Shown here one piece after another: positions 1 through 23,511 of a stretch of 42,541 bases of DNA (position 1 is the stretch's first letter; the number at the start of each line of letters is the position of its first letter). The notes under the pieces were generated by a model, which saw only the letters and a program-made list of their open reading frames with translations, was not told the origin of the DNA and searched no databases. The translations under genes and the position numbers were made by a program. The stretch lies in the IMG/VR virus record IMGVR_UViG_2529293215_000009. One strand, 5' to 3'. Source of the stretch: a virus. Taxonomy: Duplodnaviria; Heunggongvirae; Uroviricota; Caudoviricetes.

Positions 1-76
1 GAATGAATCCTGGCGGTACGACGGGAGTGATAAATACCCGTGGCCACAGCCGGTGCTGTACCACATTTGCCTCGAG

Positions 77-292
77 ATGCGTGACAGAGGGATTGAGCGG
101 CAGATGACGGAAGGTGAGTTAAAACGACTTGCAGAACGGCAACTGACGAAATGGGCAAAGCAAGTTGGTAACGGGATGAGTATTCCCCCGATCCGGAGAC
201 AACTCGCATCGCCGAAGTGCCCGCAAGGGCCAACGCCAATTGAATTACTGAAACAGGAATACGAGCGCCGGAAGGCGGCTGGTTTTGTTTGA
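77..292 (+). CDS. hypothetical protein (flanking prophage-like DNA)
   Basis: ORF 53..292 in track begins at GTG; first in-frame ATG at 77; no recognisable motif. Confidence 0.3.
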   Translation: MRDRGIERQMTEGELKRLAERQLTKWAKQVGNGMSIPPIRRQLASPKCPQGPTPIELLKQEYERRKAAGFV

Positions 293-325
293 ATCTGAGA
301 AACGATTTTGTCGGAGGAAATTTTA

Positions 326-1042
326 ATGGAAACCGTATCTGACGCACTGAAAGCACTGAAAAGAGCCTCTTCACATGTGGTGGCAGCTCGCCTTGGAATT
401 AGTCGTGAAGAGGCTGTCAACGAACTGTGGAAACTGAAACGCCGTGGAGAAGCGGATAACAAGGGGGCGATATGGTGGCTGACTCAGGCTGGTGAAAGTG
501 AACCGGTGTCACCGGTACCGAAAGTGACGGCGCAAATGCTGACAGAGGCGATTGAACAACATGGCCCACAAACGGCGGATGAACTGGCATTGATGTTCGG
601 AATTACCTCCCGCCGGGCGAATTCATCGCTGGCAATGGCAATCAGCAAAGGGTGTCTGATTCGCGTGAATCAGGATGGTAAATTTCGTTACTGCATACCG
701 GGCGTTGATTTACCGGCAGAGCCGAAAGCAGCATCCGTAGCTGAAACGGAGGGTAAAGCCCTTCCTCAGCCAGCTGGTGTTGCGTTACCAGTCCAGGAAA
801 CGGCTGCACAGGAAGAAATTAAAACAGAAGCGGTGGAGGACATTGTGAAGTTGCAGCAATCGTTCACTGAAGCGAAAGCAGATGACCTGATTCTACCATC
901 GCTGCATGTGGCTAACCGCGAGCTGCGCCGGGCGAAAAGTAATGTTCAGAAGTGGGAGCGAGTCTGTGCTGCGCTACGGGAACTGAACAAACACAGGGAT
1001 ATTCTCCGGGATATTACCGCCACCAGAGAGCAGCAGCGGTGA
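326..1042 (+). CDS. hypothetical protein, possible winged-helix DNA-binding repeats
   Basis: ORF 308..1042; GGAGG at 313-317 then ATG 326; two segments resembling wHTH ([38 protein letters not shown]). Confidence 0.45.
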
Positions 1043-1356
1043 GTGGCTGGAAGAAGTGGCGCTGGGCTGAAATCCTGATACTCCGGCAGTGTGCGGGAAC
1101 GATGAGAGTCGAAAGCATCGGTTATCTGATTGGCCGTAGTGAGTCAGCCGTCAGGACGAAAGCGCGGGAACTGGGTATCAGCATGATGTTACGGGGTGAT
1201 TATCACCAGTCAGCCAAATGTTCACAGCGTGATATTGAGCTGGCGTGGCAACTGCATCAGCGTGGTGTACCCCGACGGGAAATTGCCGAAAAGTTTGGGA
1301 TGAAGTTGGGCGCAGTGAATAACTACGTTTATTTCGACAGGAGGGTTCAGGAGTGA
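1039..1356 (+). CDS. hypothetical HTH-like protein
   Basis: GTG at 1039 overlaps stop of upstream ORF (GTGA); motif [18 protein letters not shown] suggests HTH; start uncertain. Confidence 0.35.
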
Positions 1357-1655
1357 GGGTGAGGGTTTATATCGCCGGTCCGATGACGGGATATGAAAAT
1401 TTTAACCGCGAGGCATTTCACAAAACGGAAGAGGTGCTGAAACGGGAAGGGCATACCGTTTTAAACCCGGCAGTACTTCCGGACGGGCTGACTCAGCCAC
1501 ACTACATGGATATTTGCATGGCAATGCTCCGTTGCGTGGATGCGGTTTACATGCTGAAAGGCTGGCAGCAGTCGGCAGGTGCAGGGGCTGAGCTGGCACT
1601 GGAGGAGAAACCGGGCCATGCGGTGATTTTTCAGGAGGTGGGCAGTGAATATTGA
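1353..1655 (+). CDS. DUF4406-like prophage protein (nucleoside 2-deoxyribosyltransferase-like fold)
   Basis: N-terminus VYIAGPMTGYENFNREAF...GHTVLNPA typical of DUF4406 family found in lambdoid prophages; GTG start overlapping previous stop. Confidence 0.5.
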   Translation: MRVRVYIAGPMTGYENFNREAFHKTEEVLKREGHTVLNPAVLPDGLTQPHYMDICMAMLRCVDAVYMLKGWQQSAGAGAELALEEKPGHAVIFQEVGSEY

Positions 1656-1684
1656 CCCGGCGATAACGATTGATATGGCCCTGA

Positions 1685-1689
1685 ACGCC
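1685..1689. repeat. candidate 5-bp target-site duplication (ACGCC), left copy
   Basis: ACGCC directly precedes putative left terminus TGTAACC; identical pentamer at 40909..40913 directly after right terminus. Confidence 0.45.
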
Positions 1690-10134: not shown

Positions 10135-10442
10135 TAACGACATTATTTGTTGAATCAGACGAGCCTCTGGTATGTGCCGCCGGAATGTCGGTTTGTGGCG
10201 GAACGCTGACCGGTGTTTATTTCGGGGATTTGCGCGGTTATCCCTGGCATTCACTGGATGACGCATTTCCGCCTGATATGGAGGCTGTCGTGCTGATTGT
10301 TCAGTATGGTGACCAACAGGAACTGCGCATCGGCCATATGGGGTATGAAGGCTTTTTTATTGATGAAGAAACCGGAGCCTGCCTTGAAGATGAGGACGGA
10401 CAGGTGACGCACTGGTGCCATATTTCAGCTTTACCGGAATGA
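10131..10442 (+). CDS. hypothetical protein (accessory early region)
   Basis: 103 aa; start overlaps upstream stop (ATGA). Confidence 0.4.
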   Translation: MITTLFVESDEPLVCAAGMSVCGGTLTGVYFGDLRGYPWHSLDDAFPPDMEAVVLIVQYGDQQELRIGHMGYEGFFIDEETGACLEDEDGQVTHWCHISALPE

Positions 10443-10456
10443 CGGGAGGTGAATGC

Positions 10457-10807
10457 GTGAGAAGTTATATTGATAATGAAAAACTGAAGACAATCAGCGA
10501 CTGTCTTAGCTTGCTGGCAAAAATAAAAGAAACCATTGAAGAGATTAAATTTCAGCTTGAATACGAACCCTGTGGCGATGATACATGGCGTAACTCTGCC
10601 AGAAAAGCACTGGCTGTCTTTCAGAAACAACGCCGGACTGTTGAATACCGCCTTGCTGTATTGCGCCAGGAGGAAAAGGAAAGAAATATAAGACGTCATG
10701 AACTCGTTAATGATTTTCTTGTTCGTGAATTAAAGGAGCGTGTGCCGGAGTCGGTATTTTTTGAGTGTGAGGCTGTTGCCCGTAGCAAAGCACTGGAAAC
10801 TGATTAA
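10457..10807 (+). CDS. hypothetical protein (start uncertain)
   Basis: ORF 10415..10807; GTG at 10457 preceded by GGGAGGTGA; coiled-coil-like composition. Confidence 0.35.
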   Translation: MRSYIDNEKLKTISDCLSLLAKIKETIEEIKFQLEYEPCGDDTWRNSARKALAVFQKQRRTVEYRLAVLRQEEKERNIRRHELVNDFLVRELKERVPESVFFECEAVARSKALETD

Positions 10808-10819
10808 ACAGGCAGGTGA

Positions 10820-20605: not shown

Positions 20606-21730
20606 ATGAAGACGAAAAACACGCCCAAACTTGCTTATGCCATTCTGAATGCCATCAGCCTGTCCGCAGACGGGGACGGTGACTGGTGTCAGATCATGCC
20701 AGCCGGTCGGGTAAAGGCCCGTGACGGTCGCCCGGAAAAACCGGCCGAGGGCTGGCTGATTAACCGTGCGACCGTTGAGCGCATGGTATCCCGGGTTGTG
20801 GCGCTCAATCAGCCGGTGAAAATTGACTACAACCACCAGACCCTGATTAAGGGGCATCAGGCACCGGCTGCCGGTTTTGTGATGGCCTCACCGGAGAATT
20901 TTCGCTTCAGTGAAGAGCGTGGCTTCGAGGTGCGCCCGAAGTGGAACCCTCCGGCCCTTGAACATCTGCGTAATAACGAATTCCCCTGGTTTTCACCGGT
21001 GATTGGCTATGACGAGAACACCGGCGAACCTGTCGAACTTCGGATGCTGGCTATTACCGGTGACCCCGGTCTGACCGGCATGAATCCTGTCGCCGCGCTG
21101 TCGGCGGATGACCTTTATAACGCCTTAAACCCTCCTTTAAAGGATACCTCCATGAATGAGCAATTACGCCAGTTGCTGACGGCGCTCGGTCTGACCGTGG
21201 CTGACGGTGACGAATTTACGCCGGAGCTGGGCACGGCGGCGCTGTCTGCCCTCACCGGGATCAAAACCCGTGCGGATGCACACGACAACCTGAAAACACA
21301 GGTCGCCAGTCTGTCGGCAGAGCTGGAAACCGCAAAAGGCACACCGGCTGGCGGCATTATTGATCTGACGAAATACGTGCCCGTTGAAACGTATAACGCC
21401 CTGCGTACCGAATACGTTGCGCTGTCGGCGCAGCACGGCAGCACCACGCTGGAGCAGGTGCTGGACAAGGCTGAATCCGAAGGGCGCATCTTCAAAAGCG
21501 AACGCGGCTATCTGGAACAACTGGGCGGGCAGATTGGCGTTGCGGCACTTTCTGCACAGCTTGACGCCCGCCAGCCGGTTGCGGCCCTGACCTCTCTTCA
21601 GACCGACACCGTGACCGTGCCGGATAAAAAGACTGCCACCGCTGCGCTGTCGGCTGAAGATATCGCGGCCGCCAAACTGCTGGGTAAAACCGAAGCCGAG
21701 TTCCTGAAAATGAAAGAGGAAATGCAATAA
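20606..21730 (+). CDS. prohead protease / scaffold (Mu I-like)
   Basis: 374 aa immediately upstream of major capsid gene; Ala-rich coiled-coil C-terminal half typical of scaffold. Confidence 0.7.
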   Translation: MKTKNTPKLAYAILNAISLSADGDGDWCQIMPAGRVKARDGRPEKPAEGWLINRATVERMVSRVVALNQPVKIDYNHQTLIKGHQAPAAGFVMASPENFRFSEERGFEVRPKWNPPALEHLRNNEFPWFSPVIGYDENTGEPVELRMLAITGDPGLTGMNPVAALSADDLYNALNPPLKDTSMNEQLRQLLTALGLTVADGDEFTPELGTAALSALTGIKTRADAHDNLKTQVASLSAELETAKGTPAGGIIDLTKYVPVETYNALRTEYVALSAQHGSTTLEQVLDKAESEGRIFKSERGYLEQLGGQIGVAALSAQLDARQPVAALTSLQTDTVTVPDKKTATAALSAEDIAAAKLLGKTEAEFLKMKEEMQ

Positions 21731-22677
21731 TGCCTACCCCGATTACACCGGCGATGATCACCGCCCTGATGACGGGCTACCGTTCTGATTTTCAGGCCGG
21801 GATGTCCATGGCCCCGTCGCAGTATAAAAAAATTGCGATGACCGTGCCCTCCACATCGAAATCCAACACCTACGGCTGGCTGGGGCAGTTCCCGCAGTTC
21901 CGTGAGTGGATCGGCTCCCGCGTCATCGAGAAGATGAAAGCCTATGGCTATGCCATCGTGAACAAAACTTTTGAAGGCACTGTCGCCATTAGCCGCGATG
22001 ACTTCGAAGACGACAACCTCGGTATTTATTCCCCGTTGTTCCAGGAGATGGGGCGCGCTGCGGCGGTACAACCGGATGAGCTGGTCTTTGCTGCCCTGCG
22101 TGACGGGATCAGTGCGGCCTGCTATGACGGTCAGAACTTCTTTGATACCGAACATCCGGTTTACCCCAAAGTGGATGGCTCCGGGGATGCGCAGATGGTC
22201 AGCAATATGTTTGTGGCAAAAACCGGCTCTGTCGGCGCACAGGCTGATTACAGCGGTCCGGCCTGGTATCTGCTTGACTGCTCCCGCGCGGTAAAACCGC
22301 TGATTTATCAGGATCGCCGTAAGGCTGAACTGGTTGCCCAGACCAAAGTCGATGAAGGTCGCGCATTCACCGATAACGAATTTGTGTTTGGTGCATCCGC
22401 CCGTCGCAATGTGGGCTACGGCTTCTGGCAGATGGCCTACATGATGCAGTCACCGCTGACGCTGGATGCACTGTGGCACGGCTGGTCAGCCATGCGCGAA
22501 TTTACCGCTGACGGTGGCCGCAAACTCGGCATTAAACCCACCCATATTGTTGTCCCCACCTCGCTGGAAAAACAGGCGGTGCAGCTGCTGGAGCGTGAAC
22601 TGTTCGCAGACGGAAACGCAACCGTCTCTAACGAGATGAAGGGCAAGCTGGAGCTGGTTGTCGCGGATTATCTGTAA
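21730..22677 (+). CDS. major capsid protein (Mu T-like)
   Basis: 315 aa; follows protease/scaffold with ATGCAATAATG overlap; length typical of Mu-type major head subunit. Confidence 0.8.
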   Translation: MPTPITPAMITALMTGYRSDFQAGMSMAPSQYKKIAMTVPSTSKSNTYGWLGQFPQFREWIGSRVIEKMKAYGYAIVNKTFEGTVAISRDDFEDDNLGIYSPLFQEMGRAAAVQPDELVFAALRDGISAACYDGQNFFDTEHPVYPKVDGSGDAQMVSNMFVAKTGSVGAQADYSGPAWYLLDCSRAVKPLIYQDRRKAELVAQTKVDEGRAFTDNEFVFGASARRNVGYGFWQMAYMMQSPLTLDALWHGWSAMREFTADGGRKLGIKPTHIVVPTSLEKQAVQLLERELFADGNATVSNEMKGKLELVVADYL

Positions 22678-22720: not shown

Positions 22721-23095
22721 ATGAATGAACATCACACTGTGGCAGCAACAGATGATTCAGGTCTTCAGGTCAGTGGTGACAATTCTGTCACGGTGCTGGC
22801 AGAAGTGCGTTGCAGTCGTTCGGCGTTTCGTCGTGCGGGGTTCCTGTTCACGCGTGGACGTCAGCAGGTTGAGGTCACCCCGGAGCAGCTTGCCCGACTG
22901 GAGGAGGAGCCATGCCTCACTGTGCGAATACTACAGACGTCTGCTGATGATGCGGGGAGCGTGGCGGGTGTGGTTCATGCAGTGGCCGGTACAGATTTAG
23001 CCGAAGCCGAAGCCGAAGCCGAAGCCGAAGCCGAAGCCGGACAGGATGCTCCCCGGAAAAAGACCGGTAACAAAGCGGAACAGGCCCGTGCATGA
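22721..23095 (+). CDS. small head-region protein with (Ala-Glu)6 repeat (Mu gp35 position)
   Basis: GGAGGG then ATG 22721; 124 aa; contains AEAEAEAEAEAEAG encoded by (GCCGAA)6. Confidence 0.55.
   Translation: MNEHHTVAATDDSGLQVSGDNSVTVLAEVRCSRSAFRRAGFLFTRGRQQVEVTPEQLARLEEEPCLTVRILQTSADDAGSVAGVVHAVAGTDLAEAEAEAEAEAEAGQDAPRKKTGNKAEQARA
23000..23035 (+). repeat. perfect hexanucleotide microsatellite (GCCGAA)6 inside CDS
   Basis: Six tandem GCCGAA units in frame, encoding (AE)6. Confidence 0.95.
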
Positions 23096-23511
23096 ATTAC
23101 GCCACTGAAACCGATATGCGGGCGCGTTACCGCGAGGATTTGCTCAGGCCGTTACTGGCTGTGCCCCGTTCGGATGAGCCGGACACGCGCAAGCTGAACC
23201 GGGCGCTGACAGATGCGTCAGCCCTTATCGACAGCTATCTGTCCGCCCGTTACACGTTGCCGCTGGAGGTTATTCCGGCCGTTCTTGTTCAGCACTGTTG
23301 CGCGATTGCCTTTTATTACCTGTGCGATCAGCGAGCCTCCGATCAGGCGCGTGACCGTTACCGTGAAGCGCTGGCCTGGCTGAAAGATGTCATGAACGGC
23401 AATGTGCCGGTCGGTGTGGATACGAACGGTGCGGCCCCTGAATCCGGGGATTTACCACAGGTTCAGTCTGATGCAGCGGTATTCGGGCGCAACCAGAAGG
23501 GCTTCATATGA
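23092..23511 (+). CDS. head completion/connector-like protein (Mu gp36 position)
   Basis: 139 aa, overlapping start (ATGA), downstream of capsid. Confidence 0.6.
   Translation: MNYATETDMRARYREDLLRPLLAVPRSDEPDTRKLNRALTDASALIDSYLSARYTLPLEVIPAVLVQHCCAIAFYYLCDQRASDQARDRYREALAWLKDVMNGNVPVGVDTNGAAPESGDLPQVQSDAAVFGRNQKGFI

Follow-up and report, generated by a model that had tools for sequence, protein, structure and literature searches.

A hexanucleotide repeat in the gp35-like gene of Sp18-type Mu-like prophages of Escherichia coli corresponds to the MLVA marker EHC-5 and varies in length by whole in-frame units

Our analyses of a 42,541-nucleotide stretch of viral DNA (the window; IMG/VR record IMGVR_UViG_2529293215_000009, Caudoviricetes) have focused on a perfect six-unit GCCGAA repeat located within a gene of the phage head module. 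This repeat is very probably the VNTR known as EHC-5, a marker for tandem-repeat typing (MLVA), carried in the gp35-like gene of a Sp18-type Mu-like prophage of Shiga-toxin-producing E. coli, and its length variation would be driven by slippage and would be neutral or nearly neutral, without the action of any switch. The sequence characteristics of this repeat, its distribution among different E. coli genomes, and the alternative explanations that may be offered for its variability are discussed below.

Results and Discussion

The repeat array and the prophage that carries it

The array consists of six exact copies of GCCGAA, without a single mismatch, at positions 23000–23035 of the plus strand, and direct reading of the window sequence agrees with the first-pass annotation on the number of units, their coordinates and their in-frame status. 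It begins at codon 94, 279 nt from the start, of an ORF of 124 amino acids (aa) located at 22721–23095 on the plus strand, and because GCC specifies Ala and GAA specifies Glu it encodes (Ala-Glu)6 at aa 94–105. A variant unit, GCCGGA (Ala-Gly; 23036–23041, plus strand), directly follows the six units on their 3' side and ends the array in every allele that was read at the DNA level, while in some database proteins this terminal AG unit is itself expanded to (AG)n. Tandem Repeats Finder reports the repeat at 22999–23039 (period 6, 6.8 copies, 100% matches, score 82) as the strongest tandem repeat in the entire window, the runner-up having a score of 44, and when the window was shuffled 100 times with its dinucleotides preserved, a run of three GCCGAA units occurred 0 times. 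Hairpin potential is absent from the tract, which folds worse than shuffled sequence (z = +1.83), and a hairpin-driven expansion was therefore rejected. In an antisense ORF of 58 aa (22917–23093, minus strand) the repeat is translated as (Arg-Leu)n. This ORF was rejected as a gene: it is a mechanical consequence of the repeat, and no evidence supports it.

The ORF that contains the array is located between the genes for the Mu-like major head subunit gpT (21730–22677, plus strand; PF10124, E = 6.6e-119) and a gp36 homologue (23092–23511, plus strand; Phage_Mu_Gp36, PF07030), whose ATG overlaps the stop codon of the gp35-like ORF (ATGA). This arrangement supports the head-module location that had been proposed at the outset. 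Pfam matches identify a Mu-like protease I upstream and gp37, DUF2635 and tail sheath proteins downstream. In terms of both position and sequence, the ORF is the counterpart of Mup35 of phage Mu and of ECs_4975 in prophage Sp18 of E. coli O157:H7 Sakai, and the RefSeq product name for the counterpart gene is "HI1506-related protein". The locus is carried by a complete Mu-like prophage (1690–40908, plus strand) that is 98.9% identical to Sakai Sp18. A 5-bp direct repeat, ACGCC, borders the prophage at 1685–1689 and 40909–40913, as expected for a target-site duplication of the Mu type. Its integration sites vary (viz. sorM in Sakai, beside a fimbrial operon in strains 113–121, and inside Stx phages), and on account of these differing sites between genomes the prophage looks intact and mobile.

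Some other features of this prophage and its surroundings were also observed. The flanks of the prophage in the window (1–1689 and 40914–42541) contain DUF1627, DUF4406 and Ead/Ea22-like ORFs, and the host of the Mu-like insertion appears, from its gene content, to be another, lambdoid prophage. GenBank records of Stx1a and Stx2c phages contain a "region of the inserted Bacteriophage Mu-like phage" that is 95–97% identical to the locus. In the early region, about 670 bp of the window (10137–10808) stand in place of about 200 bp in Sakai Sp18 (L013 19418–19623), and at this position the window resembles strain 118 (L002); this apparent replacement would indicate mosaicism among the Sp18-like prophages.

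Correspondence of the repeat to the MLVA marker EHC-5

The two primers for the marker EHC-5 bracket the repeat and match the window with 0 mismatches. The forward primer, ATACTACAGACGTCTGCTGATGA, is located at 22928–22950 on the plus strand and the reverse primer, CCGCTTTGTTACCGGTCTTTTTC, at 23056–23078 on the minus strand; the predicted amplicon in the window is 151 bp, and no chance matches to these primers were obtained in shuffles. The primers are provided in S5 Table of Hirai et al. (2023; PMC10062581) as part of the MLVA scheme of Japanese public institutes, a scheme attributed, as cited in that article, to Izumiya et al. (2010, Microbiol Immunol 54:569). Based on these primer matches, we identify the window repeat with the published marker EHC-5, a locus that is already known and in routine use; the two differ in nothing of kind, an offset of one in the counting being possible.

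In Japanese O157 isolates, EHC-5 is recorded as 0 (absent) in most cases and as 2, 3, 5–7 or 9–14 in the others (PMC10062581). These published null and numbered alleles agree with the uneven distribution of the prophage and with the range of alleles found in our work. The terminal GCCGGA is possibly included when units are counted, and hence EHC-5 counts may be offset by one; the published value of "2", which is a frequent one, probably represents a one-unit allele plus the terminal GCCGGA, and the EHC-5 type of the window would be about 6 or 7.

Several other identities were considered and rejected. The forward primer for O157-3 is absent from the window, and O157-10 was set aside once the EHC-5 primers had matched. 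The marker EHC-6 is often absent together with EHC-5 (PMC10062581), and it was considered as a second VNTR of the same prophage; neither of its primers matches the window, and EHC-5 and EHC-6 are unlinked in S2 Table of the same source. A search of the full text of the literature for GCCGAA, in all 12 rotations and strands, returned no relevant paper on the repeat. The classical hexanucleotide VNTRs of O157:H7 (viz. O157-3, -9, -10, -17, -19, -25 and -37; PulseNet MLVA) resemble EHC-5 in that they also have 6-bp units, change by whole units and show null alleles where the carrier element is lacking. However, they are different loci, and the EHC-5 locus rides on a transposable Mu-like prophage, so that both its presence and its chromosomal position vary.

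Length polymorphism of the array among related prophages

An 801-nt query surrounding the repeat identified 229 records in 228 of the 5426 complete E. coli genomes, all of them full-length, whereas no match to the locus was found among the GTDB species-representative genomes. In the 229 records this query matches spans of 780–885 nt, whose lengths differ by steps of 3 or 6. The conversion of these spans to unit numbers allows for two variants of the tail sequence that follows the array, and it agreed with all 13 of the loci that were read directly. Among the 89 complete E. coli genomes listed, 19 array sizes are present (1–18 and 20 units). The alleles read directly have 8 (Sakai), 9, 10, 10, 11, 12, 13, 13, 14, 15, 17, 18 and 20 units, seven IMG/VR contigs have 4, 4, 5, 6, 7, 8 and 11 units, and the representatives in the protein database contain (AE)1–8 together with the variant units AG, VE, SE and TE. 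One-unit alleles (LAEAGQD) are common, being found in 9 of the 89 listed genomes, and one database representative of them (P0056) stands for 150 member sequences. In apparently intact prophages, the length of the Ala-Glu stretch thus spans 2 to 40 residues. The expectation that would have spoken against a variable locus, viz. an identical repeat number in all relatives, fails in this comparison of related prophages. The first-pass annotation had suggested a contingency or length-polymorphic locus, and with 1–20 units in complete genomes and 4–11 in IMG/VR the second description holds, while the first is not supported, a 6-nt unit providing no on/off state.

All of the alleles consist of whole two-codon units, and the reading frame is kept in 14 of 14 directly read arrays, including the six units of the window. 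The annotation's proposal that slippage would alter a linker without shifting the frame is therefore correct with respect to the frame, although the term linker is only roughly right, since a tail of 18–21 aa rather than a domain follows the array. Contingency loci are switched by changes in promoter spacing or by repeat units whose length is not divisible by three. Those of Haemophilus and Neisseria likewise involve a hypermutable simple repeat in a coding region that changes by slippage, but they switch on and off, whereas the ORF in the window type of gene stays open in every allele read; in the 14 arrays the 6-nt unit lies inside the ORF, and neither a frame shift nor a change in promoter spacing of the kind that defines a phase-variable locus was found. 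Frameshifted variants are present in the protein database (P0052, P0054 and P0073); these are rare and are not caused by the number of units. In one of them (P0073, a single member sequence) the repeat region is read as (KP)n and the frame is restored before the basic tail, making it a compensated frameshift allele.

The units of the array have identical nucleotide sequences and show no synonymous variation. The exception is GTCGAA, which two alleles carry as their units 2 and 4; these alleles differ from each other only in their pure 3' part (13 vs. 6 pure units). Variation is located in the uninterrupted part of the array. The array is still present in lineages of the gene that have diverged to 89.7% identity, one example being the marmot strain STEC299, which has 10 units.

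The possibility that these copy-number alleles are artefacts of assembly or sequencing, in which collapsed or expanded repeats mimic true variation, also needs to be considered, because many of the proteins in the database are "partial" and stop within (AE)n or immediately ahead of it (e.g., P0058, with 82 members; P0064, with 35 members; P0065; P0068; and P0070), which indicates that short-read assemblies often break at the repeat. However, the alleles described above come from complete-genome records, each has a pure repeat structure and a length exactly divisible by 6 nt, and the arrays of 36–120 bp are shorter than long reads. In addition, fragment sizing by PCR in routine MLVA detects the same polymorphism independently (PMC10062581). 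Hence, an artefactual origin of this polymorphism is extremely unlikely. Each allele also receives its own RefSeq WP accession, which inflates the apparent diversity of the protein.

Rapid change in near-clonal isolates and its likely mechanism

The speed at which the array changes is illustrated by three cattle isolates, strains 113, 118 and 121, which have 14, 15 and 13 units, respectively. The sequences that flank the array in these strains (20,400 nt on the left and 20,365 nt on the right, 40,765 bases in all) show 0 mismatches, and all of their other prophage proteins have the same accessions. In a wider series of near-identical chromosomes from the same project, there are nine arrays of 13 units, 11 of 14 units and a single one of 15 units. 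Whole units are therefore gained and lost much faster than point substitutions arise in the surrounding DNA. In principle, these near-clonal differences could reflect consensus calling from mixed populations or errors of assembly; against this are the exact 6-bp multiples and the recurrence of two of the three alleles in many independent assemblies.

Replication slippage is the accepted mechanism for loci of this kind. In the mechanism that we propose, slipped-strand mispairing that does not depend on RecA would add or remove GCCGAA units during replication of the prophage; with a unit of two codons, the frame would always be kept and only the length of the Ala-Glu stretch would change. Slippage is the most likely process at the EHC-5 array; by analogy, the mutation rates measured for other 6-bp VNTRs of O157 lie between 4.4e-5 and 1.8e-3 per generation, almost every mutation being a whole-unit change (PMC3777172).

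Unequal homologous recombination, either between sister chromosomes or between two copies of the prophage, would also generate arrays of different lengths, and the 2–4 copies of the region that are present in some genomes (e.g., strains 98E11, 2013C-3252 and RM13322) are possible partners for such exchanges. The median, however, is one copy per genome, and the near-clonal isolates differ mostly by single-unit steps (13, 14, 15). Efficient RecA-dependent exchange usually needs a length at or above that of the arrays in question (36–120 bp). In view of these observations, we consider it highly unlikely that recombination takes the place of slippage at this locus.

Architecture of the gp35-like protein

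The gp35-like protein contains a single recognisable domain, in its N-terminal part. The match to FluMu_N (PF17891) covers aa 36–72 with 35.3 bits against a cutoff of 25.8, and homology to HI1506 (PDB 2OUT) extends over residues 25–92 (phmmer E = 1.5e-4), ending at aa 92, before the repeat. PDB 2OUT, the NMR structure of Haemophilus HI1506, is also the top Foldseek hit (probability 1.00) for the AlphaFold2 model of the protein, which was built on an alignment of 14 sequences. The model is confident at residues ~23–78 (pLDDT 82–91), and we take these residues (22787–22954, plus strand) as the predicted folded N-terminal domain; pLDDT is below 50 at residues 79–124, which include both the repeat and the tail. 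The tail, QDAPRKKTGNKAEQARA, is short, rich in Lys and Arg and predicted to be disordered (23042–23092, plus strand). The model thus suggests that (AE)n is an acidic spacer within a predicted disordered C-terminal region, having the N-terminal domain on one side and the basic tail on the other. The predicted N-terminal domain also superposes on YqbF from a Bacillus subtilis prophage (PDB 2HJQ) with an rmsd of 1.8 A over 43 residues, a weak Foldseek match (E = 2.0, rank 31) that may point to a remote relationship between small proteins of the head module in unrelated prophages.

Following the N-terminal domain, proteins of the Sp18 type have the arrangement ...DL-(AE)n-AGQDAPRKKTGNKAEQARA, or a tail that is three residues longer and ends in ...NKAKQAKKARA. 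The position of this difference is 23066–23092, where the window and Sakai have ...NKAEQARA and the longer variant has an additional 9 nt; this indel represents a second small polymorphism of the EHC-5 gene, located outside the primer pair.

The proteins Mu gp35 (Mup35; "hypothetical protein, HI1506 homolog") and FluMu HI1506 occupy the same slot, between T and gp36, and have a homologous N-terminal domain. However, in Mu gp35, HI1506 and the proteins from other bacteria a C-terminal domain of about 50 aa follows a non-repetitive linker, whereas the Sp18-type protein has (AE)n and the short basic tail instead. In our alignment, the combination of N-terminal domain, non-repetitive linker and conserved C-terminal domain of about 50 residues is present in Mu gp35, in an Edwardsiella homologue and in seven of eight more distant relatives drawn from the library of 1.84 billion proteins, the remaining one (P0093) having a different C-terminal part. 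This domain is absent from the window protein when it is aligned with Mup35 (L014:1645-2055), P0084, P0087 and P0089. The alignment thus suggests that the Sp18-type gp35 of E. coli has lost the C-terminal domain and has the Lys/Arg-rich tail of 18–21 aa in its place.

When 1.84 billion representatives were searched with the N-terminal domain as a single sequence, only 14 matches were obtained, and none of these 14 has a repeat at this position, which indicates that the repeat is specific to a lineage and not a trait of the family. The linker of Mu contains ...LAEAGG..., which is similar in the alignment to the ...LAEAGQ... of the one-unit allele. This resemblance makes an origin of the array by duplication of a single GCCGAA plausible. 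With regard to function, PHROG 3622 and 2498 are both described as "unknown function", and NCBIfam contains no match to the gp35-like protein.

Consequences of the variation in spacer length

Since the spacer is located in a predicted disordered region, changes in its length would be tolerated and would be neutral or nearly so, constituting neither a regulatory nor a programmed switch. We infer this neutrality from the predicted disorder, from the range of 2–40 residues in apparently intact prophages and from the lack of the repeat outside E. coli/Shigella.

A different interpretation is that the array serves as an adaptive tuning knob or contingency locus, in which the length of (AE)n alters the gp35-like protein (e.g., how far it reaches, how its charge is balanced with that of the basic tail, or whether a host defence recognises it) and hypermutability is kept by selection. 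The persistence of the array in lineages that have diverged to 89.7% identity, the coexistence of a wide range of array sizes and the intact and mobile appearance of a prophage found at different sites per genome are compatible with this interpretation. Further, an in-frame repeat whose variation is reported to have a phenotype is found in E. coli tolA (PMC3477136), in which copy number likewise varies among strains in a low-complexity spacer region. However, the phenotype of tolA, stress tolerance, is reported to have been tested experimentally, whereas the gene in the window is a prophage gene without a known phenotype.

Other observations are more difficult to reconcile with selection on spacer length. 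On/off switching is impossible with a 6-nt unit, the segment is predicted to be disordered, and the relatives from other species lack a repeat there. The protein has no known function in PHROGs, nor is it known to be an exposed part of the virion. Alleles with one unit cannot slip, and the frequent occurrence of such non-slipping alleles argues against hypermutability being maintained. In addition, the perfect nucleotide identity of the units points to recent turnover at the DNA level rather than conservation at the protein level. We regard the tuning-knob or contingency interpretation, overall, as very unlikely. A more specific proposal, to which we give very little credence, is that after the loss of the C-terminal domain the spacer length came to set the reach or charge masking of the basic and possibly DNA-binding tail, or to allow escape from a defence that senses the protein, with maintained hypermutability. 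While slippage with neutral or nearly neutral consequences is the interpretation that we favour, spacer length may affect the assembly or stability of the virion.

Significance of the repeat

The locus described here already serves as an epidemiological marker for Shiga-toxin E. coli, and the location of EHC-5 on a transposable Mu-like prophage explains its many null alleles. The repeat breaks short-read assemblies and multiplies the RefSeq accessions for one gene, which is of relevance for pangenome and cgMLST work. In biological terms the yield is small, the array being a textbook slippage-prone hexamer in a tail that is predicted to be disordered. It is mildly interesting that, in its E. 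coli lineage, Mu gp35 appears to have swapped a whole C-terminal domain for a repeat and a basic tail.
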